A DNA stretch of 59,459 nucleotides. It comes from Eubacteriales bacterium (GTDB lineage: Bacteria; Bacillota; Clostridia; Oscillospirales; CAG-272). Of the stretch, positions 16,739 to 56,566 are shown piece by piece. The translations under genes and the position numbers were made by a program. Location: assembly GCA_045592305.1 (NCBI GenBank), contig JAZNUO010000108.1, forward strand, positions 1-59,459, read 5' to 3'. The notes beneath the pieces are model-generated. The model worked only from the letters and a program-made list of their open reading frames with translations. It had not been told where the DNA came from and ran no database searches. Position 1 is the stretch's first letter; the number at the start of each line of letters is the position of its first letter.

Positions 16739-16758
16739 GTCTGACCCTCGTTTCTTAA

Positions 16759-26747: not shown

Positions 26748-27412
26748 GAGAATGGTTGACCGTTCCCGTTAATGCCGGCGACGGCTCCGGCTACGGCTCC
26801 GGCTACGGCTACGGCTACGGCTCCGGCGACGGCTCCGGCTCCGGCTCCGGCTCCGGCTACGGCTCCGGCTACGGCTCCGGCTCCGGCTACGGCGACGGCT
26901 CCGGCTCCGGCTCCGGCTACGGCTCCGGCTCCGGCTACGGCTCCGGCGACGGCCTATCGGCCTTGAATGGACAGGCCGTTTACTTGATTGACAAGGTGCC
27001 CACCATCATCGTGTCTATCCACTTGTCCCTTGCCAAAGGCTATATCCTCAATTCTGACCTGACTCTCAATCCCTGTTACGTGGTCAAGGGCAACGGACTG
27101 TTCGCCCACGGCGAGACCCCGCAGGCGGCACAGGAAGCTTTGCGCCGCAAGATCTTCGAGAACATGGACACCGAGGAGGCGATTGAGAAATTCTGCGAGA
27201 CCTTTAAGCGGGGTGAGATGTATTCCGGCCATGACTTCTTCGAGTGGCATCATTATCTCACGGGCTCCTGCGAGATGGGACGGAAGACATTCGTCAAGAA
27301 TCACAATATAAATCTGGATGCTCTCTATACCGTTGAGGAGTTTATCGAGTTGACAAAGGATGATTACAACGGGGAGGTTATCCAAAGGTTGAAGGAGATT
27401 TGGGAAGAATGA
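26735..27412 (+). CDS. Phage protein with N-terminal (Gly-Ser/Tyr/Asp)n low-complexity array
   Basis: MENVREWLTVPVNA, then about 59 residues of strict G-x dipeptides (GDGSGYGSGYGYGYGSGDGSGSGSGSGYGSGYGSGSGYGDGSGSGSGYGSGSGYGSGDG), then a globular C-terminal part of about 150 aa. The ATG at 26735 overlaps the upstream gene end. Confidence 0.7.
   Translation: MENVREWLTVPVNAGDGSGYGSGYGYGYGSGDGSGSGSGSGYGSGYGSGSGYGDGSGSGSGYGSGSGYGSGDGLSALNGQAVYLIDKVPTIIVSIHLSLAKGYILNSDLTLNPCYVVKGNGLFAHGETPQAAQEALRRKIFENMDTEEAIEKFCETFKRGEMYSGHDFFEWHHYLTGSCEMGRKTFVKNHNINLDALYTVEEFIELTKDDYNGEVIQRLKEIWEE
26777..26953 (+). repeat. Imperfect hexanucleotide tandem array (GGCTCC / GGCTAC / GGCGAC)
   Basis: Read directly from the sequence: about 29 six-nt units, in frame, encoding the G-S/Y/D array. 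Confidence 0.9.
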
Positions 27413-29238
27413 ATCAGTACAGTATCTTTGATGACTGTTTCGTGGACAGCTTCGCCGGTGGCGGCGGGGCTTCCACGGGAATTGAGATGGCTACGGGTCA
27501 TCCTGTAGACATAGCCATTAACCACGACCAGAGTGCGATCATGATGCACCGACGCAATCATCCATTCACCGAGCATTACATCGAAGATATATGGCAGGTA
27601 GACCCCAAGACTGCGGTGCGCGGACGTCACGTGCGTCTTGCCTGGTTCTCTCCTGACTGTAAGCACTTTTCGAGGGCAAAGGGAGCGGCCTTGGTAAACA
27701 AGAAAATACGCGGCCTTGCCTGGGTGGTTCTTCGTTGGGCGGCAGAAGTCAAGCCCGATGTCATCATGCTGGAGAATGTCCCCGAGTTTGTAACTTGGGG
27801 ACCCGTCCGCAAGGGTAAGCCCGTCAAGAGCAAAGCTGGACAAACCTACCGCAAGTGGTTAAAGCAGTTGCATGAGCTGGGCTATGTCATCGAGACCCGC
27901 AAGATCTGTGCCGCCGATTACGGAGCACCAACCATCCGCACACGCTTCCATCTGATCGCCCGCCGAGACGGTAGACCGATCTGGCCAGAAAGAACACACG
28001 CACCGAGAGATTCTTCCGAAGTCTCAAGCGGTAAATATCTCCCTTGGAGATCTGCGGCGGAAATCATAAACTGGGACTTGCCGTGCCCTTCTATTTTTGA
28101 CACCAAGGAGGACATCAAGAAGCAATACGGCATCACGGCTGTTCGCCCTTTGAAGGATAATACCCTTCGCCGTATTGCCAGAGGGCTGGATAAGTTCGTA
28201 ATCCAAAGCCAGGAGCCTTTCATTGTCCCGATCGGTTACGGTGAGAACAAAGGGCAGAAGCCGAGAGTACATGATTCGAAGGATCCATTGTCCACCGTGG
28301 TAAGTAGCGTTAAACAGTATGTATGCAATCCCGTTATGACACCTTATTTAGGGCAACACAAATTCAATAACGCTGCGCAGGATGCTCGGAACCCTTTGAG
28401 CACAGTAACGTCCGTAGGATCACATGAAATCTTTTCACCGAAACTTGCGCCGTATGTCATGTGCAACAACGCCAACAACGCTCCGCATGAGATGTGTGCC
28501 CCTGTGCCGACCATCACGACAGGCAACAGGAACTTCCTCGTATCCCCCACGCTCATCCAGTACCACACCGAACAGAGCGTAAAGGAAGTGAGAGGTCAGA
28601 AGATTAACGAGCCGATCAGAACGGTTGACGCGGCGAATCGGTACGGATTGAGCGCGGCGTATATGACCGAGTATTACGGCAACGCGCACGATGGCATCGA
28701 GGCCAGAGACCCGATGCATACAATAACCGCCAGAGACCGGGAGGGGGTGACACTTGCCCACCTTGCCCATTTCAAGGGGCAGGATAAGGGGCAATCTCCG
28801 CTGGATCCCCTCATGACGGTGACCGCCCGTGACGGTCAGTTCGCTGATGTGCGGTCGATCCTTGTGAAATGGGATGGCTGTACTGATCTGCATCGTTGGG
28901 GAGAGGTGCGCAAGTTGCTCAATACCTACTGTGACCACAACATAGCAGAGGACGAGGTTCTTCTTCTGAACATCTGCGGCTGTTGGTATTTCATTTCCGA
29001 CATCGGACTGCGAATGCTGACCCCTCGCGAGCTGTATGATGCCATGGGTTTCCCACACGACTACATCATAGACCGAGACATTAACGGAAACCCGATCAGC
29101 CGTTCCGACCAGGTAGCAAGGTGTGGGAACGCCGTGTGCCCTGCGGTCGCGGAAGCTCTGGTAAGGGCCAATCTGCCAGAGCTATGCACAATGAAAATCA
29201 ACACTATGGAACAGCTTCACGATGCTATGACATCATGA
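27409..29238 (+). CDS. DNA (cytosine-5)-methyltransferase, orphan (no adjacent restriction gene)
   Basis: Motif I DSFAGGGGAS. Motif IV FSPDCKHFS (PC). Motif VI ENVPEF. Motif VIII-like PTIRTRFHLIA. Motif IX-like MLTPRELYDAMGFPHDY. Motif X CGNAVCP. The ATG at 27409 makes an ATGA overlap with the upstream gene. Confidence 0.9.
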   Translation: MNQYSIFDDCFVDSFAGGGGASTGIEMATGHPVDIAINHDQSAIMMHRRNHPFTEHYIEDIWQVDPKTAVRGRHVRLAWFSPDCKHFSRAKGAALVNKKIRGLAWVVLRWAAEVKPDVIMLENVPEFVTWGPVRKGKPVKSKAGQTYRKWLKQLHELGYVIETRKICAADYGAPTIRTRFHLIARRDGRPIWPERTHAPRDSSEVSSGKYLPWRSAAEIINWDLPCPSIFDTKEDIKKQYGITAVRPLKDNTLRRIARGLDKFVIQSQEPFIVPIGYGENKGQKPRVHDSKDPLSTVVSSVKQYVCNPVMTPYLGQHKFNNAAQDARNPLSTVTSVGSHEIFSPKLAPYVMCNNANNAPHEMCAPVPTITTGNRNFLVSPTLIQYHTEQSVKEVRGQKINEPIRTVDAANRYGLSAAYMTEYYGNAHDGIEARDPMHTITARDREGVTLAHLAHFKGQDKGQSPLDPLMTVTARDGQFADVRSILVKWDGCTDLHRWGEVRKLLNTYCDHNIAEDEVLLLNICGCWYFISDIGLRMLTPRELYDAMGFPHDYIIDRDINGNPISRSDQVARCGNAVCPAVAEALVRANLPELCTMKINTMEQLHDAMTS

Positions 29239-41210: not shown

Positions 41211-42081
41211 CAAGAAATATCAGGCTTACTACAGTTACTTTGACGATAAGACCATCACGGGGTCTGTAGGACCCGGTGGAATTCTCAGGCTTACAAATGA
41301 GCATAAACGTCCTGATGGAGTCCCCAGGATTCCAACCAAGCCCAAAGGTACTCCCTCTGTCAATGCCTTTGTCAGCAACGCCAAGCAGAGCCAGAAGACA
41401 ATGGAGCGCCTGCTGGGCGGCCCCGTCCCGAGCTTACCGAGCAAGCCAAGCACCCAGAACAGTCATGTGTTCTCGCATTCGCCCGAGCTTGGCATGAAAA
41501 GGATCAATCAGACGCTCAACCCCATGCTCAATCCTTCCCCGCCTCCCCCATTTCTCCCCGTTATGGGAGAGGATCAGCAGGTCGGCAACCCCTCCATACA
41601 GGTTGACGAGGTAGCGCTGTTCGATCAATACGCTGATTACTACAAGCGTCAAGGCAAGCTCGCCATGGAGGACACTATCGGCAGGGCTGCGGCCTTGACG
41701 GGTGGCTATGGCAATTCCTACGCTGAGGTTGCGGGTAATCAAGTGTATGACTCTCATATCGCCGATTATCTCAAGGTAATCAACGGGACTTCCAAGTCCG
41801 TCGGCAACGGAGCGACCGGCAGTTGGTTGGACGACCTGATTGGAGACCAGACCAGCACAGGGTTCACAGGCACTACCGCACAGGAGGCGCAAGCCTACGT
41901 ACAGTCCCAAGGACTCCCCGCCGATTCCCTCGCAGACCTTATGTCTGATGCCGAGTGGAGACGGCAGAAGGCACTTCATCTCCGCCACGGTGGCGGTGGT
42001 GTTGAAGTGACCGAATACGATACATACGCCGAATATCTCGCCGCTTTCGTGGCCTATGTTACGGAAGTGTACAACGGCTAA
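41203..42081 (+). CDS. Hypothetical virion-module protein (Pro-rich middle)
   Basis: 292 aa. The ATG at 41203 lies 8 nt after GGAGG. It overlaps the upstream gene by 8 nt and ends 13 nt before the giant gene start. Confidence 0.55.
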   Translation: MNDKKYQAYYSYFDDKTITGSVGPGGILRLTNEHKRPDGVPRIPTKPKGTPSVNAFVSNAKQSQKTMERLLGGPVPSLPSKPSTQNSHVFSHSPELGMKRINQTLNPMLNPSPPPPFLPVMGEDQQVGNPSIQVDEVALFDQYADYYKRQGKLAMEDTIGRAAALTGGYGNSYAEVAGNQVYDSHIADYLKVINGTSKSVGNGATGSWLDDLIGDQTSTGFTGTTAQEAQAYVQSQGLPADSLADLMSDAEWRRQKALHLRHGGGGVEVTEYDTYAEYLAAFVAYVTEVYNG

Positions 42082-42094
42082 AGGAGGTAATCTC

Positions 42095-45000
42095 ATGGCA
42101 TTTTCCGAATGGCAAAAGAAAAAGAAACAGCAGGAGCAGGGCGTAGCGCCGTCCTCTCCCACAACCGATCCGCAGGCTAATACCGCTACCCAGCGTCCCT
42201 CGTTTGCAGAATGGCACTCCAAAAAGAAGGAGACCTCGTCTGCACAGGGGTGGCTGGACAGCGTGAACAGTTTCCTCGGCGACGTCAATAATCGTTACAA
42301 GGGCTGGAACAACAGTTCGGACGATTACAACAGCATTTTCAACCGATCCCAAGAACTCCTCCTCGCCGCCGATGGTTGGCGTAAGCAGTACGCTGGGGAT
42401 CCGAATGCGGTCAACGCCATCAATCAGGCTGTGGACTCCCTGGGCAGAGCGCAGGAGTATTCCAAGGCTTACTACGACTTCTATTCCCAGTTTGGGAGCG
42501 CAGACGAGTACGACACATGGACTCGCAAGCAGGACTTTATTCAGCGGTATGTTGAGGATCCTGATATGGCACTCGTTAAGGGTGGGTATGAGCCTGGGTG
42601 GGTCGAAGAAGCGGAATACTCGAAGAAATACAGCAGTCATGCCACTAATCCCGATGGGAAAATGGGTTGGGAAAAGTACCTTTCCGACCAGCAGAAACCC
42701 GAGGAGGAAGAAACTTGGCTTGATGCCATTGGTCGCTACCTTGGCAATGGCGGCATAGTGGATACAACTCTTCCTAATGCAGGAGTAACTCAAACCATAC
42801 ACGACCTTCGCGCCGATGACAGTTGGAAGCATCCGCAAGCCGATTGGAATCAGGAGCAGAAGAACATCTATGGTTCGCTGTATCTGGACTCCCCCTATGA
42901 GGCCGAGCAATTTGCGATCTACACTAACAGAAGGAACAAGGAAATCGCAGAGGCAGATAAAATGCAGAAGATTAGGGAAAGTGCTACCGATAATTTCGGG
43001 ATGGGACTTCTCCACTCTCTCGGGTCTATAGCCACGTCCACCATGGGCATGGCGGATTTTCTTGCCAATCTCGCGGAGGCAAATGCCAGAGGCACCATGA
43101 CTGATGACGGTCAAGTCTCTCCGTTTGAGTATTCACAGGCTGTCCAGGGCGGCATATCCGAGCACTTGAACCAAAAGAGCGGAACCATTGACGAAAAAGT
43201 CCCGATCTTTGGCGGAAAGGGTGCAGGGGACTTGTATAGCCTTGGTATGAGTGTTCTGGAGAGCACCGCTTCCATGGCTTTAGGACCTGGTGGCACCCTC
43301 GTTACATTCTTTGGTTCTGCTGGAGCATCAGCCATGGAGGACGCATTGAACAGAGGTGCAGAGGACTGGCAGGCAGCTCTTTATGGACTTGCCGCAGGTG
43401 TATTTGAAGGTCTCGCTGAGCAGATTGGTATTGACAACCTGTTCAGATTGGGCGGTTCTACTACCGTTAGGGAGACCATCAAGAACATTCTGAAGCAAGC
43501 TGGGGCAGAGGGCGCCGAAGAGGGGCTTACTGCTTTGTTCACTAACATCGCGGATAACGTCATTCTTCAAGAAAAGAGCAACTATTACGAGTTGGTTAGC
43601 CAGTACCAGCTGGAAGGTATGGACTATAACCAGGCCAGAGCAAAAGCGTGGTTGGAGTCTGTTGAGGGTGTTGCATATGACACCATCACCGGCGCCGTAT
43701 CTGGTGCAGTGCATGCGGCTCCTGTTATGACTGGACAGTATGTCAGTAATAGAAACCACACCGCCAACAGAATCTACGGTGATAACGCCGCCGATCTCGT
43801 AGCCGAAGCCCTTGAAATCGACCCGTCCAACACTTATGCCCAGAAATTGAAAAGAAAACTGGACAGCGGCAAGACTCTGTCGGGTGCTGAACTCAACAGA
43901 CTCATCAAGCAGAACGAGAAGCGCATCAAGGACGCCGAAACGGACACCGCTACCGAAGACACCGAAGAAACGCCTCCGTATCCCTCCGAGGCTTCCACGC
44001 CGCAGACGGAGACCGCTTCCCCGACCGAGAGTGCCCCCCCGCACGAAAACGCCTCAGAGAGCGAATACGAGGCTTCTGAGGGCACGACTCCCAAGACCGT
44101 TGCAGACACCACCGCCACCAGGCAGACCGCCCTGAACGAGGCCGCCAAGAAGTATGGTGCGCAGGCGGGTGCCATGGACGCCATCTATAAGGATGGGCAG
44201 GACATGGATTCCTTTGACCGCGGTATCAAGATCGCATTCGACATGGGCCGCGCCGGTGTTTCCCTTTCCTACGCCATGACCAGCGACTCTACTGCCTATC
44301 TTACCGAGAAGCAGAGGGAGTTGGCTCATGGTATTGGCGTTGACTCTTCCAATAGCGAGGCAAGCGAGCGATCCGAAGACAACAAGAAGAAGGCCAATGG
44401 CAAAACGGGGCGCAGGATCGGCACCGTTAAGGGCGAAGGCGTAACCATTAGAGATCTCCGCAAGACCTTCAACGACACACAAGGCGTAGCCTATAAGGTG
44501 CTTACCACTTACGCCGAGGCAACGGGCATTGACATTGTCCTGTTCAAGTCTGAGGCAAACGAGGAGGGCAGATTCGACGGAGCGCAGGGTCGTTTTGTCT
44601 GGAAAGAGGACACGATCTACATTGACATCAACGCAGGTCTTGCCAATGTCAAAAGCGTGGAGGATCTGGCCAAGTACACGATGCTTCGCACGTTTGCCCA
44701 CGAGTTCACTCACTTCATCGAAAAGTGGAACCCCATTCAATACAACGAGTTCCGGCGTGTTGTGTTTGACGCAATGACCGCCCGCGGAGAAAACGTTCAT
44801 GATCTCATCGAGCTTAAACAGGCTCAAACCAGCGGAATGTCCTATGACAAGGCAAGCCGCGAGGTTATGGCCGAGGCTATGGCCGACATTCTCCCTGATT
44901 CGAGTTTTGTGCAGACCCTTGCCGAGAATCACAAGAGCATTTTCAATAAACTCCTTGAGAAACTGAAGGAGTTTGTTGCGGATCTCAAAGCCTATTTCCG

Positions 45001-48000
45001 AACCATCGGCAGCACGTCATCCCGTGAAGCCCGCGCCCTTAAGGAGCAGGTAGGTGAGTCCTTGAAGTATGTGGAGAACATTGTATCCATGTTTGACAGG
45101 ATCGCCGTGGAGGCCGTAGAATCCTACCAGTTGACCGTAGCGACCGACGAGGCTGTTGTAGAGACTCCCATTCCTGTTGAGAAACCCGCACCCGCTAACG
45201 TGCACGATACGCCCAAAAATGCAGATAACCCCGCCGTAAAGCCCAATGTTGCCGCTGATGCAACCACGGATGGTGATAACGGGGACGCATTTTCGATCAC
45301 CGTCAACGCCGAATACGGTACGTTGGAAGTCAAGTTTGACGGGAAGCCCTCCGAGACTGTACGAAACGCACTCAAGGCCCATAAGTTCCGTTGGCATGGC
45401 AAGAAGAGCGTTTGGTACGGAAAGGGCGAGCGGTCTGATATTGTCAGAGTTCTGCGGGATGCGTATAAGGTTGAGGAAGCCACTCCTTCGGTAGCAACAT
45501 CGGATGAGTCCAATAATAAAACCTCCTTGATTGAGAGAGCTTATCAGATAGGCAAAAAGGAAGCCGAGGCACAAAGAACTATTGTTCCCGCAGCCAAGAG
45601 CAAGGACATGAACGATTTGATGAAAGAAGCCGGCAATAATCTTCTCCCTATCATTGAATCGTTTGACAAAGGCGTTGCGGATGAAATCAATCGCCAAACG
45701 GTTTCGGAATTGGATCCTTCTAAAGATTTTGATGCCACTTCCACCTCCCGTAGCCCTTCCAACACGCTTGAATCTATTCGCAACAGGTATCCCGGTAAAT
45801 TCATCATTTACCAAAACGAGGACGGGAGCTACAGCATTCCTGATCTCAATGTTTCCTATCCGTCAAATTGGGATGTATCAAAGGCTATTGATGCTGTAGC
45901 CAAGAGCAGAGACGTTGTGCTTGTACAGGGTGACAAGATTACTGAATATCCCGCCCGTAAGGTTTCCGATTCTGCTGATTCGGACACATCTACGACACAA
46001 AATGGTGCTATAATGGCAGAAGAGGCGGCAGAAGTCGTTGAGACCAGTAATGAGACCGAAGTCGTCAAGGAGGAACGGCCCGTAGCGATTTCCGAGGAAG
46101 ATTTGATCCAGGAGAAAAAGGCGTTCGACAAGAAGTTTGGCGCTATCGACAAGTCCAAATGGATGGTTACGGATTTTGCTCCTCCCAAAAAGGGACAGTT
46201 TATCCTTGATGGATCCCTCGCTATACGAGCTTCCGACCGTGAGCTTGTTGTCGCAAGGGCGGAATATGGAAGAAAACACAATCTTCCCTCTTTCGGCTTT
46301 ATTCCCGAGCATCTGTCCGAGGTTTTGAAAAAGGCAACGACCCTTGTCACCGAGCCGCCTGTTGTTATCGGCGGCCATCCCAAACCCTTGTTCGTTTTTA
46401 CGTTTGACGGAAAATCGCATTTCTGGGACAAAAAGCGTCTTTCGGCTCTGGATGGGAATACTTTCTACGTGGGAGATTTCCAAGGAAAATATAAAATCCT
46501 GAAAGCTGTCGATGAAAACGGAGAGATTGCCGGATTTGTTCTTCCTGTAAATCCGCGTAATCTCACAATCACCGACCCGACGCCTTCTAAACTCAAAACC
46601 TTTTCTAAAAAGAAGCAAGCAACCACAAAAACCACCGAGGAGGTAACCGCAAATGCTGATAACCAAGGATCAGTACTACAGTCTGACAGTGATCGGGAAG
46701 GAGATTCACGACTACTGGATGAAGTCGAAGCCCGAGATGTACATGGAGATGTACGAGCAGGGGACGCTGTGGGAGACCCTGTACAGAGAGGACAAGAGAC
46801 TGGACGATCTGGCCTGCGATCTGATAGCAGTACAGGGGATGTCGGTGGACATGGCGATGGAGGTCGTGAGAGCGCAGATCTACGACGAGATGGCGGATTA
46901 ACCGAAGAATCTTCAGAGCCTGCGACCGACACAAATGTCGGTGACACCGCTGATAGCGCGTCCGCCGAGGTGCTTCATGAGGATGTCGCCGAGGAGATTG
47001 CGCGGAAGTCTACTGAAAAGCCGAAGGGCAGAAACTTCGTGATTGGAGACAGTCTGAATCTTCCCAACGGCGACAAGGCACGATACAAGGCTAATGTAGA
47101 AGCCATTCGACTTGTCAAGCAGTTGGAGTCAGAAGGCCGCTACGCTACGGAAGATGAGCAGGTGATCCTGTCCAAGTATGTAGGCTGGGGTGGTCTTGCG
47201 AACGCCTTTGATTCCCGCAAGGCTGAATGGGCAAGAGAATACGCAGAACTGGCCGAACTCCTGACCAAGGAGGAGTACGAATCTGCCAGAGGATCCACTT
47301 TGAACGCTCACTACACCGATATTTCTGTCATTAAGGCTATGTACGACGGTCTGGCCGGTCTGGGCTTTGACGGCGGTATGATGCTGGAGCCCTCGGCGGG
47401 CGTTGGCAATTTTGTCGGTGCTATGCCCTCTGCCATGAGTGCGAAGGTCAGAGGATGGACAATGGTGGAGCTTGACGGTATCACCGGCTTGATTGCCAAG
47501 TATCTCTATCCCAACGCTAACGTGCAGATCCAAGGATTTGAGAGCACCGTCATTCCTGATAACTTCATGGACGTGGCGATCTCCAATGTTCCTTTTGGAA
47601 ACTACCCCGTAACCGATAAGGCATACCCCAAGAAGATCACAAGTGCGATCCACAACTATTTCTTCGCAAAAGCGTTGGATAAGGTTCGCCCTGGCGGAAT
47701 TGTGATGTTCATCACTTCTGCCTACACCATGAATGCCAGAGAAACCACCGTCCGAAACTACATCATGCAGAAAGCCGACCTTCTCGGTGCCATCCGTCTG
47801 CCTGATTCTGCCTTTAAGAGCAACGCCGGAACCGAAGTTGTCACCGACATTCTGATTCTCAAGAAGCGCCCCCCTCACACTCCCTATGCGGGCGTTGACT
47901 TTCTGGAAGCCCCGTTTACCACTCTTTCCAACGAAAGCTACAACGGTGCTTATATCAACACATACTTTACCGAGCACCCTGAAATGGTGTTGGGTACTCC

Positions 48001-51000
48001 GTCTTTGACGGGAAGCATGTACCGTGGCGATTCTCTTACCTACAAAGCGTTCACCGACCGTGGCAGCCTTGCCGATCAGATCCGCGAGGCGTTTACCCAC
48101 ATCGAGGGCAAGATGGATTACCCGCAGTCCCTTTCCAAGGAGCGGACGAACTTCGCGGTCGAGCGAGCAAGCAAGAAGACCAAGAAGAACGGCTACGAGG
48201 TCAAGGACGGAAAGATTTATCGGAACCAAGACGGTGAACTCGTGGAGCAGCAGATCCCAGAGAAAACCGCCGAACGCATCAAGGGACTGTTGGGTATTCG
48301 TGATGCCCATCGAACTCTTGTGACCTGCCAGCAGCAGGGCGTGAACGATGCCGAGATCAAGAAGGCAAGAGCCGCCCTGAATAAGCTATACGACGATTTC
48401 GTCAAGCGATACGGGTTCATCAATGCCCCCGCCAATCGTAACGCTTTCCGAGATGACCCTGACCGTCACACTCTGATTTCACTTGAGATCTACGATCCTG
48501 ACACTAAAACCGCCAAGAAGTCGGATGTTTTCAGGGTCAATACGATCACACCTAACCGCACGATCACTTCCGCTGCTACCGTATCCGAGGGATTGATTAT
48601 TTCCCGCAACGAGACGGGTTCCGTTGACATCGGTATGATCGCAAAACTCACCGGCAAGAGCGAAGTGGATGTGACACGCGAGCTTTTGGAATCCCGCCTT
48701 GTCTATAAGACCAAGGACGGCAATCTGGAAGCGGCGGAAACCTACCTGTCCGGCAACGTCCGGGCGAAATTGCGCGATGCAGAAGCTATGCTTCCCTTCG
48801 ATGCGGATTATGCCATGAACATCGAGGCCCTGAAAGCCGTTGTTCCCAAGGATGTGGCTTGCGAGGACATTTTTGTAAATCCCGGTACTCCGTGGATCCC
48901 CAACTCTGTGTATTCCGACTTCGCCGCGTATATTCTCGGTGGCAGAAACTATGAGTTTAATCCCGCTGTTATTGTCACCCGCAATCGTGATACCGGCAAC
49001 TTCACGGTCGATGTCAGAGGCAAGTACCTGAAAAACACGGTCGCCAATCTCCAAAAGTGGGGCACTTCGAGACGTACATTCCTGGATATTTTCGATGCTC
49101 TGTTGAACAGTCGCAGCATCGTTGTTAAAAACAAGCTCGATGACGGTTCCTTTGTAGTGGACGCTGATGCTACAGCGGCCGCCAACGAGAAGATGGAGGC
49201 AATTGGGAAGGAGTTCCAGGATTGGCTGTGGCGCGACGAAGCGAGACGCGATGAGTTGACCCGCCTTTATAACGAGACGTTCAACGCCCTTGTTACACCC
49301 AAGTACAACGGCGACAATCTGACCGTGAACGGAGCCAATGCCGCAAAGCCCCTCCGCCCCCATCAGCGCGACGCTGTACAGCGGGTCATTGCTTCCGGCG
49401 GTAATACTTTGCTCGCTCACAAGGTCGGTGCCGGTAAGACTTATGAGATGGCCGCCGCCGCTATGAAACTGAAGCAATTGGGACTTGTCAAAAAGCCCAT
49501 GTTTGCGGTCCCGAAGTCCCTTGTGGCTCAATGGGGCAACGAATTCATGGATTTCTTCCCCACCGCAAAACTCCTGGTTGCTGATGAAAACGATTTCACC
49601 CCCGCTAATCGTAGGGTGTTTATCAACCGAATCGCTAACGGAGACTATGACGCTGTCATTCTCTCCTATGAGCAGTTTGAGAAGATCCCTGTATCTGATG
49701 ACTTCGCAAAAGATCTGTATCAGGAGCAGATCGATAGCGTTATTGCCGCCATCGAGGAGGCAAGAGCCAATCAGGGCGAAAAGGCGTTGTCTATAAAGGA
49801 TCTGGAGAAAAAGCGTAAAACCCTTCAAGCCAAGATCGACAGGCTTACTTCCAAGCCCAAGGACGATGACAACATCCTGTTTGAACAGTTGGGTGTTGAC
49901 AGTCTGTTTGTTGATGAGGCTCATAACTTCAAGAATCTTTTCTACACCACTTCCATGACGAACGTGGCCGGTCTTGGTAATAAGGACGGTGCCGAAAGGG
50001 CATTTGACCTCTATACCAAGGTGCGATACCTGCAACGTCTGAATGGCGGTCGCGGCATTGTGTTCGCCACGGCGACTCCTGTCATGAACAGTATGTCCGA
50101 GATGTACATCATACAGAAGTATCTCCAACCCGACCTGCTGGAGCAGTTGGGCCTTACGTCCTTTGACGCCTGGGCAAAACAGTTTGGCGAGGTAGTCAAC
50201 GGCGTGGAGATCAAGCCCAGCGGCCAGGGATACCGCGTTAAGCAGAGTTTTTCCCGCTTCAAGAATCTGAGTGAGCTTCAACTGCTGTTCCGTAATTTTG
50301 CGGATGTTTTGACCGAAATCCCCGGTTTGAAGATTCCTAAAATGAAGGGCGGCAAGGTAAACGTGGTCGTCTGCGAGCCGAGTGAATTCCAGCAGGACTA
50401 CATGAAACTGTTGGAGGAACGCGCCGAACACATCAAGAATGTGGATCCCAGCGTGGATAACATGCTGAAGATCACGAGCGATGGTCGCAAGATCTCCTAC
50501 ACTCAGCGCATGATCGATCCCTCTCTTCCCTACGAGGAGGGGTGTAAGATTTTCCGCTGTGCGGATAATGTCGTTGCTACCTACAAGGAAAGCGCGAAAA
50601 TCAAGGGGACTCAGCTTATCTTCTGCGACATGGCTACCCCCAAGGGCAAGAGCAAGGCCCAATCCTCTGCTACGGACGAATCCGAAATGGATATGGAGAG
50701 CGCTCACTTGTACGAGGATATCCGAGCCAGACTGATTGAAAAAGGCATTCCCGCAAAGGAAATTGCTTTTATCCATGATGCCGACACGGATTCCAAGAAG
50801 AAAAAACTGTTCGCGGATGTAAACGAAGGGAAAGTCCGTGTTCTGATCGGGTCCACCGCCAAAATGGGCGTAGGCATGAATGCTCAAAAGCGTGTCGTGG
50901 CTATCCACCATCTTGACGCTCCCTGGAGACCCGGAGACGTGGAACAGCGAAACGGTCGCGCCTTCCGCCAAGGTAACATCAACGATGAGGTCGAGTGCTT

Positions 51001-54000
51001 CACTTACGTTACAGAGGGGAGCTTTGATGCCCGTCTTTGGGACATTTTGGAGCGCAAGCAGAATTTCATCGACCAGATCATGAACGGTGAGGATGTAGGC
51101 CGAGAGGCTGAGGACACGGGAGAGGTCACTCTTTCCGCCGCCGAGGTCAAGGCTCTTGCATCCGGCAGTCCATGGATCATGGAGCAGGTGCAGATCGAGA
51201 GCGATATTAAAAAACTGGAAAGCCTGTACCGAGCTCATACGGCATCCATTCGTGAAGCCCGCATCCGACTTTCTCGTAGCATCGGCGATGTCGCCATGTA
51301 TGAAAAATCACTTGCGGCTGTTCGGGAAGATCTGAAAGCACGCAAGGACACCTATTCGGAGGAAAACTTCTCAATCACCATCGGGAACAAGAACTATACG
51401 GTTAAAAAGGATGCTGGCGTTGCCTTTATCAGGGAGGCTGTCGCCAAGGCCAAGGAATCTGATTATGTTACTATTGCGACTTTTGCGGGTTTTGAATTGA
51501 AAGTAATCAAGACTCCCGAGGGCGTGAAGGGCATGATGTTCGGAAAGCAGAGCTATCCTTTCAACGTGTATCCCGGAAACTCCTCCTATCAGATTACAGG
51601 TCTGGTCAATCTTGTATCCGGTCTTGATGCCCGCGTGAATATGTTGGAGAGTGATCTTGCAGCAGCCCGCAACAACATCGCAGAGCAGGAGAAGATCATC
51701 AACACGCCCTTTGCAAAACAAGCAGAGCTTGACAAGAAGAGAGCGCGGTTGAAGGAACTTATGGCTTTGCTGAATCCCAAGGAGGAGCAGCAGATTGCTT
51801 CTATGGATGAGGATACGGTGCAGGAGCAGAGTCGGGCGTATTTGGATGACTTCACTGACAACGTTCCTGTCAAGGTCGACGAGATTGGCGAAAACTATGG
51901 CCTCACCCTCCGAGAGTACTCCTTGCAGGAAATTTCCAACATATTCTACCGTGGCAGAAGCATTGGCGTTGAATACGACATGCTGTTTGACCGTGTATAT
52001 GATTTCTGCAAGAACGCAGGCATTACGTTTGAGGTGCTGCCCACCATCAAGAACGATAAGGGCGAAGTTGTTCCTGGTGTCAGCTCTGGTGATCGCGTTT
52101 CTTTGAATCAGGAATCGTTCAATGAAGAAAATCTTTCAAACGAAAGAAAATCTATGGTAATCCTGCACGAGATGATTCATGCGGCAACAACGTATGCAAT
52201 AAAAGCTTATTTAAGGATAAGGAAGGGGGATGTAACCGTTAAAATGCCGAAAGATATTTATGATAGTTGTGTCCAAATCGTGCGTGTATTCCAATCGATT
52301 AAATCCGACCCCAATTTCGAAAACCAGTATGGAATAGAAAAAATCACGGAAATGATCGCTGAACTGTCAAACCCCGAATTCGTGACTCTGCTGAAGATGT
52401 CTTATCCGAGCATGTGGCATGAATTTTTGGATTTTGTGTGCAGATTGTTCGGCATCAACAAGAGATTTACCAATTACGCCACTTTGAAAAAAGCCGTTGA
52501 CGAAATCCTGTCTCACCCAGATTACGGACTTGCCAGTCGTTATTACGAACAGTTCTGGTTGCATAATCCTCGCTTTTATTTGGATGAGTCGCAGTTCTAC
52601 GATGCCAACGAACAGAATCAGCAGCGTACCAATACCCTTACCGACCGCGAAGTGCTTTCTATGGCGGCAGAACGACTGGAAGGGTATCCCGACCTCACGG
52701 ACGGGGAGCGGGACGCGCTCCGCATCTTCAAGGATCACCTGAACACGCTTCATCTCTTGCAGGAGGAGCGAGCCCAGCAAGGCAGGCTTTACAAGGAGCA
52801 GCAGTTTGGAGCCAAGGTTGACAAGGCCGCCGCCACCGAGACCCTAAACCGTATGCACGTACTGGACGATCGGATCCGAGCGACCAATGATGCGCTTCTC
52901 TCGGTAGAGAATAAAGAAGTTTTGCGTCGGGTGCTGGTCAAGGCGCGCAAGGTCGTTGAGGAGCAGGAGCAACAGCATGGCAAGGAAATCCTTGACCGCT
53001 GGCGTGAACGCACCAAGAACGCCGCCGCTATCAAGAAGTACCGCGAGCGAATCCAGTCGGATGTTAACGATTTGTACAATTGGATCACTAAGCCCGACAA
53101 CAAGGACATCGTAAAGCATGTACCCGATGTACTGAAGAACGCGGTGATCCCCTTCCTAACCTCCATCGACTTTACGAGCAAGCAGCAGTTGAGAGGGGGA
53201 GAGGCTACCAAGGGCGATAAGGAATTTGTCGCAAAATTGGACAGACTCAAGAAGGCCTTGAAAGAGGACATTGATATGGACGGTATGTACTCCGGCTATA
53301 CCGATCTTCCTGTGGACTTCATGGATGAGCTTCAGGAATTCATCGACGCCGTTCAGGAAATTTTGGATGATGGCGCGGATGAGTTCGTCATCAACCGTAT
53401 GACCGGCGACGAACTGAAGGAACTCTCCAAACTTGTGCGGACCCTGAAAAAGTTCATTACTCAGATCAATCGTTTCCACGTCAATGCCATGTTCCAACAC
53501 GTCTATGAAGCTGGAGACAGCACCATCAATGATCTTTCGCACATGGCAAGCGACAACGGTCGGGCTAACGGCGTATCTAACTTTGTTTTCTGGCAACAAC
53601 TGCGGCCCGCATACGCATTCGAGCGATTTGGAAACGGCGGCTTGTCAATTTATGATGGTTTGCGCCGTGGGCAAGCCCAGCTTGCTTTCAACACCCAGAA
53701 GATCGTCAAGTTTTCAAGAGAGGCATATACCGAGAAGGAAGTTAAGGAATGGGAAGATAGTGTCGTGGAAGTCAAACTGGACAGCGGCACCGTTAAAATG
53801 AAGGTGTCTCACATGATGTCCTTCTACGAGCTTTCCAAGCAGCCCGATTCCTTGCGGCATATACTCACGGGCGGTATTCGTGTTGCTACTTTCAAGGACG
53901 GCGAGAAGATAGCCGACCGCGGACATAAGATTTCGGAGGATGATGTCAAAACCATCATTGGGACATTGACTCCCAGGCAGAAGAAGGTTGCGGATGATCT

Positions 54001-56566
54001 CCAATGGTTCATGGCCAAGCAGGGCGGCGCGTGGGGTAACTATGTGTCGGTTGCGCGATTTGGAGAGGAGCAGTTCACGAACGAATTGTATTTCCCCATC
54101 AATTCCGACGGACGTCACCTGAAGTCCATGGCTGACGAGAATCCGAGTGCCGCAAGCCTGTATGCTCTTCTCAATATGAGCTTCACAAAGTCCCGTAACG
54201 AGAAGGCGAACAATCGCATTATCCTCTACAGTATTTTCGATGTATTCTCCAACCATATGGCAAGCATGGCACAGTATAACGCCATGGCTCTTCCTGTGCT
54301 GGATGCTATCAAGTGGTTCAATTACCAGCAAAAAGTAGACGGCGTGAATGGAGAGCGCATCATTAAGGACAGCGTTCGTGAGCAGATGGCGCGTGTGTAT
54401 GGTTCCCCCGAGGAAACGAGACCCGGAAGCGGCCGTCAGGGATATGCAGAGGCATTTATACTGAATATCCTGAAAGCGTTCAACGGGACCGAAGCCCAGG
54501 GCATTCCGTCCGACTCGCTCGGCACGAATACCCTTCGCCGATACAATATGGCACAGATCGCCTATAATACCCGCGTTGTCATCCAACAGCCGTTGGCCAT
54601 TACGAGAGCGGCGCTTTTGATAGACTACAAGTCGATCATTCGAGGTCTCGCCGGTAATACGACTGCACTCAAACAGAATATTGCCGAGATGCAGCAGCAT
54701 AGCGGTATCGCGGCCTGGAAATCCCTCGGCTTCTACGATGTCAACATATCCAGAGGACTGACCGATCTCATTAAGCACAAATCCACCGTTATGGATAAGA
54801 TCGGTGATGTGGGTATGTGGGGGGCTGAAATGGCTGACCTGTTTACTTGGGCTGGCATTTGGAGTGCCTGCAAGTCGGAGGTTATCAAGAAGCAGCGTAT
54901 TACTCCTGACCATGACGGATTCTACGAGGCTGTTACTTCGCTGTTTGAGGAAATCATTTATAAGACGCAGGTAGTCGACAGTATCCTGACTAAAAACGAG
55001 TACATGCGAAGCAAGGGATTCTTTGCAAGAGCAACCAGTTCGTTCATGTCGGAGCCTTGCGCGACCGCAAGTATGGCACTGGATGCCTACTACAAATACG
55101 ACACGGACATTAAAAACGGCATGACTCGCCAGCAGTCGTGGAAGAAGAACGGGAAGCTGATCGGCAGAACCATCTGTGTATATGCCGTGTCCCAAGCCAT
55201 GTTGGCAGCATTCCAGGCTATTTCCGATGCCTTCCGTGACGATGATGAATACGAGAGTTATCTCGAAAAATGGTTGGACGCATTCGGCGGTAACCTTGTG
55301 GATGAGCTTATGCCGCTCAACAAACTTCCGATCCTTTCTGATTTTTACGATCTTGCAAAGGAACTGCTTTCTATCCTCGGCGTGGATACCTACGGAAATC
55401 CTCCGCAATCGGTATTTATGCAATGGTACGACAGTTTAATAAAGGGTGTCAGTATCATCTATGACAAAATCATGGGCGAAGACACAAATTACAAGTGGTA
55501 TGGCGGCATTTACAAACTGCTACAGGCTGTATCTGGCATGACCGGTCTTCCTATGGCGGCGGTTACTCGTGAGATCGCAACCATTTGGAACAATACGGTT
55601 GGCGGTTTCGTACCGAGTCTTAAAATCAAGGATTATGAGCCTTCCGAACTGAACCAAATCAAATTCGCCTATCAGGACGGCTTCCTCACCGCTGAGGAAG
55701 CGCGTGAAGCCCTGCTGGAGAACGGTTTGGCGGACGATGATGATGAGGTTTATTGGATCCTGCAAGGCTGGGATGCGGGGGACAAATATTCCCGCTATGA
55801 CTCTCTTAATCAGGCTATGCTCAACGGTCAGTCTATTGACTCGGCAATGAGCGAGCTTATGGAGCATGGATACACCGAGAAAGAGGTTATTTCTCATGTG
55901 AGGAGTCAGATCGGTACATGGTATAAAGAGGGAGACATAACCAGAGAGCAGGCTGAAAAGTTGCTTTTGAAGTATGGGGAACTCAATACCCAGGAAATCA
56001 AGTCCATGGTCGATAAGTGGAGTTGCAAGATCGTCACCGGCATCAACTACGATGACATCAAGCACGAGTACCTGATCGGCAGTATCACCGAAGCCAGGGC
56101 CATTGAAATGAGACGGCTCTACGGCAATGAGACCCGCGAAAAGGCCGCTGAGACGGTCACCAAGTGGAAGTGCGAGAAGGAGGTCGGCATTGCGTATGAC
56201 GATATTCCCGACCGCATTATCAACGGTACTCTGTCGGCAGATGACGCCAAGGAGCTTTATGTCACATACGGCGGCTATACCAAGCAGGATGCCACCGAAA
56301 AGGTCGTGGCTCTTGACTTCGTCCGCCAGCATCCCGAGTGCAGAGGTATCTCGTATGCCGCTGTTAAGAGCTACAGGCAATACTGCGAAAAGGCAGGAGT
56401 CTCCGCTGAAGTTTTCTACGACGTTTGGAAGAAGCGCACCGAACTCAAGAAGAACGGTACAATGGCATACATCAACCGTCTGAATATTACCAGAATGCAG
56501 AAGGACAGCCTGTATCTGGCTATGGGATGGTCCTATAGCACTATCGCTGAAGCGCCCTGGCGTTAA
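42095..56566 (+). CDS. Giant polyvalent virion protein (4,823 aa): Gly/Ala-rich hydrophobic N-region, zincin module, DarB-like N6-adenine DNA methyltransferase plus SNF2/DEAH helicase, second zincin module, C-terminal region of about 1,100 aa
   Basis: A single stop-free frame. The ATG at 42095 follows AAAGGAGG. Motifs: FAHEFTHF (HExxH, 44699-44713); MTase motif I LEPSAGVGNF (47384-47413) and motif IV DVAISNVPFGNYPV (NVPF at 47585-47596); helicase Walker A GAGKT (49427-49441), DEAH (49913-49924) and motif VI QRNGRAFRQGN; second HExxH VILHEMIHAAT (52166-52180). Confidence 0.85.
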   Translation: MAFSEWQKKKKQQEQGVAPSSPTTDPQANTATQRPSFAEWHSKKKETSSAQGWLDSVNSFLGDVNNRYKGWNNSSDDYNSIFNRSQELLLAADGWRKQYAGDPNAVNAINQAVDSLGRAQEYSKAYYDFYSQFGSADEYDTWTRKQDFIQRYVEDPDMALVKGGYEPGWVEEAEYSKKYSSHATNPDGKMGWEKYLSDQQKPEEEETWLDAIGRYLGNGGIVDTTLPNAGVTQTIHDLRADDSWKHPQADWNQEQKNIYGSLYLDSPYEAEQFAIYTNRRNKEIAEADKMQKIRESATDNFGMGLLHSLGSIATSTMGMADFLANLAEANARGTMTDDGQVSPFEYSQAVQGGISEHLNQKSGTIDEKVPIFGGKGAGDLYSLGMSVLESTASMALGPGGTLVTFFGSAGASAMEDALNRGAEDWQAALYGLAAGVFEGLAEQIGIDNLFRLGGSTTVRETIKNILKQAGAEGAEEGLTALFTNIADNVILQEKSNYYELVSQYQLEGMDYNQARAKAWLESVEGVAYDTITGAVSGAVHAAPVMTGQYVSNRNHTANRIYGDNAADLVAEALEIDPSNTYAQKLKRKLDSGKTLSGAELNRLIKQNEKRIKDAETDTATEDTEETPPYPSEASTPQTETASPTESAPPHENASESEYEASEGTTPKTVADTTATRQTALNEAAKKYGAQAGAMDAIYKDGQDMDSFDRGIKIAFDMGRAGVSLSYAMTSDSTAYLTEKQRELAHGIGVDSSNSEASERSEDNKKKANGKTGRRIGTVKGEGVTIRDLRKTFNDTQGVAYKVLTTYAEATGIDIVLFKSEANEEGRFDGAQGRFVWKEDTIYIDINAGLANVKSVEDLAKYTMLRTFAHEFTHFIEKWNPIQYNEFRRVVFDAMTARGENVHDLIELKQAQTSGMSYDKASREVMAEAMADILPDSSFVQTLAENHKSIFNKLLEKLKEFVADLKAYFRTIGSTSSREARALKEQVGESLKYVENIVSMFDRIAVEAVESYQLTVATDEAVVETPIPVEKPAPANVHDTPKNADNPAVKPNVAADATTDGDNGDAFSITVNAEYGTLEVKFDGKPSETVRNALKAHKFRWHGKKSVWYGKGERSDIVRVLRDAYKVEEATPSVATSDESNNKTSLIERAYQIGKKEAEAQRTIVPAAKSKDMNDLMKEAGNNLLPIIESFDKGVADEINRQTVSELDPSKDFDATSTSRSPSNTLESIRNRYPGKFIIYQNEDGSYSIPDLNVSYPSNWDVSKAIDAVAKSRDVVLVQGDKITEYPARKVSDSADSDTSTTQNGAIMAEEAAEVVETSNETEVVKEERPVAISEEDLIQEKKAFDKKFGAIDKSKWMVTDFAPPKKGQFILDGSLAIRASDRELVVARAEYGRKHNLPSFGFIPEHLSEVLKKATTLVTEPPVVIGGHPKPLFVFTFDGKSHFWDKKRLSALDGNTFYVGDFQGKYKILKAVDENGEIAGFVLPVNPRNLTITDPTPSKLKTFSKKKQATTKTTEEVTANADNQGSVLQSDSDREGDSRLLDEVEARDVHGDVRAGDAVGDPVQRGQETGRSGLRSDSSTGDVGGHGDGGRESADLRRDGGLTEESSEPATDTNVGDTADSASAEVLHEDVAEEIARKSTEKPKGRNFVIGDSLNLPNGDKARYKANVEAIRLVKQLESEGRYATEDEQVILSKYVGWGGLANAFDSRKAEWAREYAELAELLTKEEYESARGSTLNAHYTDISVIKAMYDGLAGLGFDGGMMLEPSAGVGNFVGAMPSAMSAKVRGWTMVELDGITGLIAKYLYPNANVQIQGFESTVIPDNFMDVAISNVPFGNYPVTDKAYPKKITSAIHNYFFAKALDKVRPGGIVMFITSAYTMNARETTVRNYIMQKADLLGAIRLPDSAFKSNAGTEVVTDILILKKRPPHTPYAGVDFLEAPFTTLSNESYNGAYINTYFTEHPEMVLGTPSLTGSMYRGDSLTYKAFTDRGSLADQIREAFTHIEGKMDYPQSLSKERTNFAVERASKKTKKNGYEVKDGKIYRNQDGELVEQQIPEKTAERIKGLLGIRDAHRTLVTCQQQGVNDAEIKKARAALNKLYDDFVKRYGFINAPANRNAFRDDPDRHTLISLEIYDPDTKTAKKSDVFRVNTITPNRTITSAATVSEGLIISRNETGSVDIGMIAKLTGKSEVDVTRELLESRLVYKTKDGNLEAAETYLSGNVRAKLRDAEAMLPFDADYAMNIEALKAVVPKDVACEDIFVNPGTPWIPNSVYSDFAAYILGGRNYEFNPAVIVTRNRDTGNFTVDVRGKYLKNTVANLQKWGTSRRTFLDIFDALLNSRSIVVKNKLDDGSFVVDADATAAANEKMEAIGKEFQDWLWRDEARRDELTRLYNETFNALVTPKYNGDNLTVNGANAAKPLRPHQRDAVQRVIASGGNTLLAHKVGAGKTYEMAAAAMKLKQLGLVKKPMFAVPKSLVAQWGNEFMDFFPTAKLLVADENDFTPANRRVFINRIANGDYDAVILSYEQFEKIPVSDDFAKDLYQEQIDSVIAAIEEARANQGEKALSIKDLEKKRKTLQAKIDRLTSKPKDDDNILFEQLGVDSLFVDEAHNFKNLFYTTSMTNVAGLGNKDGAERAFDLYTKVRYLQRLNGGRGIVFATATPVMNSMSEMYIIQKYLQPDLLEQLGLTSFDAWAKQFGEVVNGVEIKPSGQGYRVKQSFSRFKNLSELQLLFRNFADVLTEIPGLKIPKMKGGKVNVVVCEPSEFQQDYMKLLEERAEHIKNVDPSVDNMLKITSDGRKISYTQRMIDPSLPYEEGCKIFRCADNVVATYKESAKIKGTQLIFCDMATPKGKSKAQSSATDESEMDMESAHLYEDIRARLIEKGIPAKEIAFIHDADTDSKKKKLFADVNEGKVRVLIGSTAKMGVGMNAQKRVVAIHHLDAPWRPGDVEQRNGRAFRQGNINDEVECFTYVTEGSFDARLWDILERKQNFIDQIMNGEDVGREAEDTGEVTLSAAEVKALASGSPWIMEQVQIESDIKKLESLYRAHTASIREARIRLSRSIGDVAMYEKSLAAVREDLKARKDTYSEENFSITIGNKNYTVKKDAGVAFIREAVAKAKESDYVTIATFAGFELKVIKTPEGVKGMMFGKQSYPFNVYPGNSSYQITGLVNLVSGLDARVNMLESDLAAARNNIAEQEKIINTPFAKQAELDKKRARLKELMALLNPKEEQQIASMDEDTVQEQSRAYLDDFTDNVPVKVDEIGENYGLTLREYSLQEISNIFYRGRSIGVEYDMLFDRVYDFCKNAGITFEVLPTIKNDKGEVVPGVSSGDRVSLNQESFNEENLSNERKSMVILHEMIHAATTYAIKAYLRIRKGDVTVKMPKDIYDSCVQIVRVFQSIKSDPNFENQYGIEKITEMIAELSNPEFVTLLKMSYPSMWHEFLDFVCRLFGINKRFTNYATLKKAVDEILSHPDYGLASRYYEQFWLHNPRFYLDESQFYDANEQNQQRTNTLTDREVLSMAAERLEGYPDLTDGERDALRIFKDHLNTLHLLQEERAQQGRLYKEQQFGAKVDKAAATETLNRMHVLDDRIRATNDALLSVENKEVLRRVLVKARKVVEEQEQQHGKEILDRWRERTKNAAAIKKYRERIQSDVNDLYNWITKPDNKDIVKHVPDVLKNAVIPFLTSIDFTSKQQLRGGEATKGDKEFVAKLDRLKKALKEDIDMDGMYSGYTDLPVDFMDELQEFIDAVQEILDDGADEFVINRMTGDELKELSKLVRTLKKFITQINRFHVNAMFQHVYEAGDSTINDLSHMASDNGRANGVSNFVFWQQLRPAYAFERFGNGGLSIYDGLRRGQAQLAFNTQKIVKFSREAYTEKEVKEWEDSVVEVKLDSGTVKMKVSHMMSFYELSKQPDSLRHILTGGIRVATFKDGEKIADRGHKISEDDVKTIIGTLTPRQKKVADDLQWFMAKQGGAWGNYVSVARFGEEQFTNELYFPINSDGRHLKSMADENPSAASLYALLNMSFTKSRNEKANNRIILYSIFDVFSNHMASMAQYNAMALPVLDAIKWFNYQQKVDGVNGERIIKDSVREQMARVYGSPEETRPGSGRQGYAEAFILNILKAFNGTEAQGIPSDSLGTNTLRRYNMAQIAYNTRVVIQQPLAITRAALLIDYKSIIRGLAGNTTALKQNIAEMQQHSGIAAWKSLGFYDVNISRGLTDLIKHKSTVMDKIGDVGMWGAEMADLFTWAGIWSACKSEVIKKQRITPDHDGFYEAVTSLFEEIIYKTQVVDSILTKNEYMRSKGFFARATSSFMSEPCATASMALDAYYKYDTDIKNGMTRQQSWKKNGKLIGRTICVYAVSQAMLAAFQAISDAFRDDDEYESYLEKWLDAFGGNLVDELMPLNKLPILSDFYDLAKELLSILGVDTYGNPPQSVFMQWYDSLIKGVSIIYDKIMGEDTNYKWYGGIYKLLQAVSGMTGLPMAAVTREIATIWNNTVGGFVPSLKIKDYEPSELNQIKFAYQDGFLTAEEAREALLENGLADDDDEVYWILQGWDAGDKYSRYDSLNQAMLNGQSIDSAMSELMEHGYTEKEVISHVRSQIGTWYKEGDITREQAEKLLLKYGELNTQEIKSMVDKWSCKIVTGINYDDIKHEYLIGSITEARAIEMRRLYGNETREKAAETVTKWKCEKEVGIAYDDIPDRIINGTLSADDAKELYVTYGGYTKQDATEKVVALDFVRQHPECRGISYAAVKSYRQYCEKAGVSAEVFYDVWKKRTELKKNGTMAYINRLNITRMQKDSLYLAMGWSYSTIAEAPWR
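44400..44900 (+). other. Domain: zincin-like metallopeptidase module 1 of the polyvalent protein
   Basis: The HExxH motif in TMLRTFAHEFTHFIEKW is preceded by a beta-rich segment (IDIVLFKSE...GRFVWKEDTIYIDINAG). Boundaries are approximate. Confidence 0.55.
46653..46901 (+). CDS. Embedded +1-frame gene inside the giant gene: small helical protein, TnpV-like by pattern
   Basis: Strong SD GAGGAGGT (46637-46644) lies 8 nt before the ATG. An in-frame TAA (46644-46646) precedes it, so the ORF is self-contained. The 82 codons have G/C-ending codon usage like genuine genes of this phage. MLITKDQYYSLTVIGKEIHDYWMKSKPEMYMEMYEQGTLWETL...GMSVDMAMEVVRAQIYDEMAD. Confidence 0.45.
   Translation: MLITKDQYYSLTVIGKEIHDYWMKSKPEMYMEMYEQGTLWETLYREDKRLDDLACDLIAVQGMSVDMAMEVVRAQIYDEMAD
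47030..47900 (+). other. Domain: N6-adenine DNA methyltransferase (gamma-class order, motif I before motif IV)
   Basis: NFVIGDS...KYVGWGGLANAFD lead-in, LEPSAGVGNF, NVPFG. This layout is what I recall for P1 DarB-like and ICE MTase-helicase fusion proteins. Confidence 0.75.
49350..51000 (+). other. Domain: SNF2/DEAH-box helicase (both RecA lobes)
   Basis: RPHQRDAV, LLAHKVGAGKTYEM, FVDEAHNFKN, ATATPVMNS, STAKMGVGMNAQ, HLDAPWRPGDVEQRNGRAFRQGN. Confidence 0.8.
52090..52480 (+). other. Domain: second zincin-like module, in a locally AT-rich patch
   Basis: KSMVILHEMIHAATTYAIKAY. Hand count gives about 33% GC for 52201-52260 and about 42% for 52261-52320, against mid-50s or higher around it. Confidence 0.55.

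Follow-up and report, generated by a model that had tools for sequence, protein, structure and literature searches.

The stretch of DNA analyzed here (the window) comprises positions 1 to 59,459 of contig JAZNUO010000108.1 from an Eubacteriales bacterium (assembly GCA_045592305.1), and the subject of this report is a small gene resembling the TnpV family that is predicted to lie within, on the same strand as, and in the +1 reading frame of a giant gene of 4,836 codons. The giant gene is predicted to encode a DarB-like protein with methylase and helicase modules, and the small gene falls in the linker that precedes the methylase module. The nested open reading frame (ORF) starts with an ATG at 46653, 8 nt past a Shine-Dalgarno (SD) sequence, and ends with a TAA at 46899-46901 (further coordinates are collected in Table 1). 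The original prediction for this locus had given the positions of the SD, the upstream TAA, the ATG, and the stop, the length of 82 codons, the +1 frame, and the translations of both frames, all of which proved correct. A crude promoter scan detected no sigma-70-like site near the nested gene, and a separate transcript is therefore not supported.

Within 46655-46894, the G+C fraction was 0.80-0.87 at host-frame codon position 1 and 0.27-0.30 at position 3, which is the pattern of a gene read in the +1 frame. When all 4,837 host codons were scanned by codon-usage log-likelihood, a single segment stood out, codons 1530-1625, in which the +1 frame scored 26.0 versus -11.2 for the host frame; together, these two measures confirmed the bias toward G/C-ending codons that the original prediction had noted in the +1 frame. 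A search of 5.8 billion proteins with the 82-aa product returned 28 homologues at 52-98% identity, all of them 81-85 aa long (hereafter, with the window protein, the short family), and a profile search of 1.84 billion representatives returned 127 clusters, nearly all of 48-250 aa; in the wider set of loci described below, homologues were kept at 41-98% identity. The short family was found only in metagenomes, viromes, and metagenome-assembled genomes (MAGs), and tblastn searches of GenBank phages and PLSDB plasmids with the 82-aa protein gave no matches. The family alignment contained 18 invariant columns, and the AlphaFold2 model of the window protein was a compact five-helix bundle (pLDDT 93.3, pTM 0.81). 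A Foldseek search of the PDB gave no significant match (best 2apl, E = 2.4), and the lone suggestive match in BFVD was to a long viral protein, Q8W6J4_2 (TM 0.70), which we infer to belong to Sinorhizobium phage PBC5; the fold yielded no functional clue.

Across 32 loci, nucleotide identity by small-frame codon position was 0.69, 0.76, and 0.59 at positions 1, 2, and 3, respectively, and the mean identity was 0.57 for the small-frame protein, 0.45 for the host-frame peptide, and 0.44 for the non-coding third frame; the alignment of homologues that the original prediction had proposed as a means of telling which frame is selected thus singled out the small frame. The possibility that the small ORF is an untranslated relic, conserved through constraint on the host linker or on RNA structure, gains from the fact that initiation is sometimes weak when the start lies inside a translated ORF, yet we consider it very improbable in the face of a host peptide that was no better conserved than the third frame, a small-frame protein that was, a position 2 > 1 > 3 pattern of conservation, the conservation of the SD, ATG, and stop, a confidently predicted fold, and the persistence of the small gene outside the giant gene in one relative (L032). 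Judged by these signals, the nested ORF is a real protein gene and its frame is under purifying selection.

For the host frame, the probability of remaining open across the small ORF was calculated exactly by resampling synonymous codons with the host gene's own usage while the small protein sequence was held fixed. This probability was 0.0005 for the window and at most 0.004 for every one of 16 non-redundant loci, all of which are open. To create a host-frame stop, a small-frame codon must end in T and be followed by one that starts with AA, AG, or GA; in the short family, T occurred at 0 of 502 such stop-creating sites versus 105 of 932 other sites (Fisher p = 3e-21), and host-gene codon usage predicted 204 occurrences at the former. 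G was in excess at small-frame third positions (618 observed versus 385 expected), and the host-frame peptide is therefore enriched in Gly, Asp, Glu, Ala, and Val. Over 46646-46931 of the window, this peptide is a low-complexity, D/G/R/S-rich string (16 Gly, 14 Asp, 10 Arg, 9 Ser, 0 Lys) that is modelled by no Pfam family. Since conservation of the peptide does not exceed that of a non-coding frame, the host frame appears to be constrained to be open and roughly linker-like rather than to a specific sequence, and by these statistics it is held stop-free by selection, beyond chance. The locus thus has the properties of an overprinted gene pair: both frames are open over the full overlap on the same strand, with selection on each. 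The homologues and the openness statistics together support the original proposal that the linker of the giant gene is a dual-coding region whose +1 frame holds a complete small gene preceded by its own SD.

Metagenomes, IMG/VR viral contigs, and MAGs of Eubacteriales and Oscillospiraceae yielded 37 related loci, of which 34 entered the frame analysis together with the window. The small ORF lay in the +1 frame of a larger ORF that was open across it in the window and in 33 of the 34 loci; wherever the enclosing ORF was complete it spanned about 4,000-5,000 codons, its parts upstream and downstream of the small gene shared one frame in every complete locus, and the third frame always contained stops. 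The +1 frame was closed by a stop 3-60 nt 5' of the nested ATG in nearly every locus. An SD of the GGAGG type or AGGAG was located 6-9 nt 5' of the ATG in 32/32 loci, and the ATG, likewise in 32/32, and the stop were conserved. A sequencing or assembly artefact, in which two compensating indels mask an in-frame TnpV domain (one of the options that the original prediction had entertained), has no support beyond its a priori possibility, and we put its probability close to nil: it is refuted by the recurrence of the same frame relation, flanking stops, SD, and ATG in more than 30 assemblies of independent origin (metagenomes, viromes, MAGs, and isolate plasmids), even where protein identity drops to 41-44%, and finished Clostridium botulinum and Cohnella plasmids show the same nesting of canonical TnpV genes (see below).

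Prodigal-type gene callers split the locus into separate genes in L002 and L035-L037, placing the downstream start at an internal GTG-type codon, and separate genes do occur in Acaryochloris and PBC5; both facts would suit a locus of three separate genes (upstream, tnpV, and methylase-helicase) in which the openness of the host frame is fortuitous and the downstream start is internal, e.g., the GTG in ...RNFVIG.... This arrangement is nevertheless hard to credit, as the upstream 1,530-codon frame runs without a stop before 56566, the openness is far past chance and is missing from stand-alone TnpV genes, and the upstream and downstream parts share one frame in all complete loci. Nor did we find, in the window or its relatives, a conserved SD-preceded restart codon in the host frame between the nested stop and the methylase module, in keeping with the earlier remark that no obvious one precedes the methyltransferase domain. 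Host-frame stops upstream in L036 were set aside as a contig-end chimera, the sister contig L037 being open.

The conserved N-terminus of the methylase module (LHEEV..QIAQQSTE.PKGRNFVIGDSL...GWGGL) followed the nested gene in nearly all relatives, and the segments upstream of it belonged to at least six unrelated module types; the shuffling of the upstream modules over a constant downstream methylase indicates that the nested gene and the methylase-helicase travel as one cassette. The motif GGAGGTAA (46637-46646 in the window), in which the final T of the SD and the following AA form the upstream stop, recurs in most relatives and is read in the host frame as (K/E/Q)-E-V, so that upstream module swaps always join in frame through the SD. 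In L004 and L022, an extra host-frame segment of ~85 aa (SYEAAKSYAEEKGYRIEINK…) lies between the nested gene and the methylase N-terminus. Longer nested ORFs occur in L018 (9941-10378, 145 aa) and L031 (9992-10354, 120 aa), where an acidic, Trp-containing C-terminal extension (…EQDRxNREEWEMF…) goes on overlapping the host frame. In L032, a ~480-nt unit with the small gene (9919-10332 and 10401-10868) occurs twice in tandem; both copies of the small gene almost match the one nested in L018, each still lies wholly within an open alternative-frame ORF (137 and 155 aa) with its own ATG, and they probably represent a recent excision.

Against the Pfam TnpV model (PF14198), the window protein scored 16 bits (E = 0.012) over profile positions 17-70 of 111, and the TnpV profile was matched by 29/29 aligned family members at E <= 0.1, the best at 3.1e-7; a precomputed PF14198 match also existed for two database homologues. 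The suggestion that the small protein is TnpV-like thus probably holds at the level of the family and fell short for the window protein alone, and the profile search of the 82-aa product that had been advised gave a weak match that became firmer across the family. An hhalign comparison of the short family with the TnpV-like domain of PBC5 gave a probability of 79% (E = 1.6e-5), while BLASTP and hhalign comparisons with the Acaryochloris TnpV were negative or weak. The short family and TnpV of Tn4451 (PF14198) have in common the sequence motifs of a helical small protein; the window protein, however, has 82 aa versus about 115-123 for canonical TnpV and is without the N-terminal 'TYxxNGDYLIP' segment, and the Tn4451-type TnpV is a stand-alone gene, unlike that of the window. 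For TnpV of Tn4451, a role has only been postulated, as Xis-like (PMC3158075).

The regions upstream of homologous methylase modules also contained full-length canonical TnpV genes (Pfam E = 1e-32 to 1e-42) that are nested within giant ORFs, in the +1 frame, over host peptides rich in G/D/E/R/S. They were present in human-gut phage contigs (MT835923, MT836741, and MT836028), in a C. botulinum plasmid (NZ_KJ776581, of the L051-L053 set) whose gene table lists only an 'SNF2-related protein', and in a Cohnella plasmid (NZ_CP051681) and a Monoglobus replicon (NZ_OY725736) whose tables list only a 'TnpV protein'. More generally, the PLSDB gene tables of L051-L053 contain just one of the pair, either the giant SNF2-related gene or the gene for TnpV, and the original record may omit the other partner or label it a pseudogene.

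A survey with an alignment of five canonical TnpV sequences yielded 80 IMG/VR loci in 42 clusters at >=85% identity. Nesting was observed in 27 loci (16/42 clusters), with host ORFs of 473 to over 2,400 codons and, in most of those that extend far enough, a methylase module 1-4 kb downstream; the other 53 loci (26/42 clusters) were stand-alone, and the corresponding frame was open for only 4-110 codons. No cluster mixed the two arrangements. T was found at 0 of 1,025 stop-creating sites in nested genes versus 197 of 1,378 in stand-alone canonical TnpV genes (p = 4e-51). The stand-alone genes, with their stops, serve as a natural control and indicate that the open host frame is not a by-product of the TnpV sequence. 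In a crude neighbor-joining tree, nested genes fell mostly in contiguous, deeply branching parts, which suggests few origins and long maintenance.

Two further systems contain the same building blocks as the window, i.e., upstream modules, a TnpV-like unit, and a methylase-helicase. In the Acaryochloris plasmid pREC3, a separate upstream TnpV gene of 121 aa (29.5 bits, above threshold) overlaps the start of the SNF2/methylase gene by 8 nt, while in PBC5 the giant upstream protein gp22 ends in an in-frame C-terminal TnpV-like domain that is followed by a stop and then by a separate methylase-helicase gene (gp21). In contrast to both, the flanks are fused in one frame with TnpV in the +1 frame only in the Firmicute elements. 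The methylase frame of PBC5 is also open over the TnpV domain; this was not counted, because the genome looked G+C-rich by eye and chance ORFs are long in such DNA. The RefSeq record of PBC5 (NC_003324; L043) has a 1.6-kb gap (5566-7198) between two 'DarB-like antirestriction' coding sequences into which the N-terminal portion of the methylase module falls (tblastn match 6001-7482), so the start of gp21 is probably mis-set.

The PBC5 arrangement bears on whether the small frame might instead be reached by programmed +1 frameshifting, with slipped ribosomes making a protein of the upstream modules plus a TnpV domain that ends at 46901 and unshifted ribosomes making the full-length protein. Such a product would resemble gp22, whose in-frame C-terminus is a TnpV-like domain, and the best BFVD structural match (Q8W6J4_2, TM 0.70) is a long viral protein. 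In prfB and dnaX, SD-like sequences are known to promote frameshifting, and an A-run (GCAAAAATG) on which a Lys-tRNA could slip +1 is present at the nested start in many relatives. The A-run is absent from the window, however, which has GCAAATG there; the span in which a slip could occur is tiny, since the +1 stop sits 3-60 nt before the ATG nearly everywhere and inside the SD here; and the SD-ATG spacing of 6-9 nt is that of initiation rather than +1 stimulation, with an ATG in all 32 loci. Frameshifting is, on balance, quite improbable.

We therefore favor true dual coding by a same-strand nested gene pair in the +1 frame, which we regard as highly likely from the sequence comparisons. The TnpV-family gene would be translated from its own SD and ATG on the same mRNA as the giant gene, and ribosomes on the giant gene would pass the same 250 nt in frame 0, making a flexible, D/G/R/S-rich linker between modules; they must cross the overlap in frame 0, because the 1,530 upstream codons meet no stop before 56566. 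The nested gene carries translation signals (SD plus ATG), and both products are probably made. Selection would act on the sequence of the small protein and, in the host frame, mainly on freedom from stops, with a bias toward codons that start with G.

Several points weigh against dual coding. The 16 loci behind the openness statistic, for which the summed log10 P was -61.8, are phylogenetically related, and the per-locus probabilities are thus not fully independent. The score of the window protein (16 bits) lies below the PF14198 gathering score of 27, and the hhalign match between the short family and canonical TnpV was only moderate (probability 36%, E = 3.7e-4, 60 columns). Host ORFs in the MAG contigs L023, L026, and L033 reach only 500-900 codons and are cut soon after the small gene, and the small gene of L032 has no giant gene around it. 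An SD buried in an ORF that is itself heavily translated may support only poor initiation; furthermore, both products are predictions from sequence signals, and the reason for nesting is speculative.

Regarding origin, the pair probably arose from an ancestral operon of tnpV and methylase-helicase, in which an upstream module gene was fused by read-through across the intact tnpV, in the -1 frame relative to it. Fusion across an intact tnpV would make the TnpV frame the older one and the linker frame the overprinted one, which is also the probable direction of evolution. Overprinting and read-through fusion across the small gene, which the original prediction had listed as separate possibilities, are both supported and are mutually compatible. 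By such a history, dual coding would arise when read-through joins two large genes across an intact small gene, which then also serves as their linker.

The recurrent pairing of TnpV with DarB-like modules may reflect a partnership in which TnpV could be, for example, a chaperone, an adaptor, or a regulator. A more specific proposal, that nesting is a functional device and TnpV an obligate partner of the DarB-like methylase-helicase (as a chaperone, a packaging/transfer adaptor, or an inhibitor), is tentative and on present evidence rather unlikely; under it, TnpV synthesis would be tuned by ribosome traffic on the giant ORF, which would fix the ratio or timing of the products. If this were so, the whole TnpV family, regarded as a 'putative excisionase of transposons', would have to be seen instead as an accessory factor that serves anti-restriction polyproteins delivered with the DNA; the tie between the TnpV family and DarB-like anti-restriction polyproteins offers a testable lead to function.

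To our knowledge, bacteria and their phages offer few long, conserved nested genes on the same strand for which selection can be shown in both frames. The dual coding described here would extend over about 250-350 nt and be kept down to about 40% protein identity across gut Firmicute phages, plasmids, and conjugative elements. Annotation pipelines disallow such nested genes by design, and the nesting would explain the inconsistent database annotation of these loci, in which metagenome gene callers shatter the giant gene. We found no description of TnpV nested in giant genes in the literature searched, the coverage of which was incomplete so that an earlier description is possible; the polyvalent-protein paper, the C. 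difficile mobile-element paper, and the recent survey of Faecalibacterium integrative and conjugative elements make no mention of it.

The nearest parallel in architecture is comS within srfAB of Bacillus subtilis, where a giant multi-module gene contains, on the same strand and out of frame, the coding sequence of a small protein with a separate ribosome-binding site, and one mRNA yields both products. The comS overprint has 46 codons, is lineage-restricted, and falls within an enzymatic module, whereas the nested TnpV gene belongs to an old, widespread family that also occurs stand-alone, its host frame is a disordered linker and probably derived, and the nesting is conserved over very divergent elements. 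Among phages, Rz1 in Rz of lambda and B in A and E in D of phiX174 are embedded same-strand, out-of-frame genes with two functional products. Those pairs serve lysis or replication and have sizes comparable to their hosts, in contrast to a gene of 82-120 codons within one of 4,000-5,000 codons that is tied to a DarB-like anti-restriction module. Polyvalent proteins (PMC5512222) and P1 DarB are, like the product of the window gene, giant multi-domain proteins with methylase, SNF2 helicase, and zincin motifs; Iyer et al. 2017 (PMC5512222) do not mention TnpV, overlapping frames, or frameshifts, and the gene nested in the linker would add a layer to that picture.

As to its setting, the window is a tailed-phage genome by PHROGs annotation, with terminase, portal, major head, and internal virion protein genes 5' of the giant gene and a tail fibre gene 3' of it; the giant gene (42056-56566) is flanked directly by the internal-virion-protein and tail-fibre genes, a position in the virion-structural region that fits a protein delivered with the DNA. 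Pfam matches to SNF2-related, ResIII, and Helicase_C domains were above threshold, and a SprT-like match reached 13 bits, under threshold. The methylase module shares 37-46% identity with RefSeq phage genes named 'DarB-like antirestriction' (tblastn). The giant protein thus combines a methylase and an SNF2-type helicase in a single polypeptide, as polyvalent and DarB-like proteins do, and on these domain matches its gene is classed as one for a polyvalent, DarB-like protein. The HEFTH zincin motif may mark an autoprocessing peptidase, as the polyvalent-protein literature would suggest (PMC5512222).

Table 1. Predicted features of the giant gene and its nested gene in the window
Feature	Coordinates	Strand	Basis or remark
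Shine-Dalgarno GAGGAGGT of nested gene	46637..46644	+	Sequence; host frame reads Glu-Glu-Val
TAA closing the +1 frame upstream of the nested start	46644..46646	+	Last T of the SD plus AA
Nested TnpV-like gene, 82 codons plus stop, +1 frame of host	46653..46901	+	Homologues, alignment, AlphaFold2, Pfam
Dual-coding segment, host codons about 1530-1625	46646..46931	+	Codon-usage scan
Giant host gene, 4,836 aa	42056..56566	+	ORF list and translation
HExxH zincin motif HEFTH, upstream part of giant protein	44699..44713	+	Sequence motif
Conserved N-terminus of methylase module LHEDVAEEIARKSTEKPKGRNFVIGDSL	46973..47056	+	Begins 72 nt past the nested stop
N6-adenine methylase core	47570..47785	+	Weak Pfam Eco57I-like match, aa 1839-1910
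NVPFG motif within methylase core	47585-47599	+	Motif position
SNF2/ResIII helicase core and Helicase_C	49349..50974	+	Pfam matches, aa 2432-2627 and 2900-2973
Second HExxH motif, HEMIH	52166..52180	+	Inside the weak SprT-like match

Long antisense ORFs inside the giant gene (48479-51238, 919 aa; 53714-55423, 569 aa; and 47129-48310, 393 aa; all on the minus strand) are presumably shadow ORFs, and in the relative L001 a metagenome gene caller chose antisense ORFs in place of the giant gene. A second giant ORF of the window (2,954 aa, 7898-16762, minus strand) was without an embedded alternative-frame segment in the coding-frame scan. The window also has a separate gene for a DNA methyltransferase and one of SbcC-like/recombinase type (27400-29238 and 21262-23199, both plus strand; PHROGs), and the phage therefore has a second methylase besides that of the giant protein.

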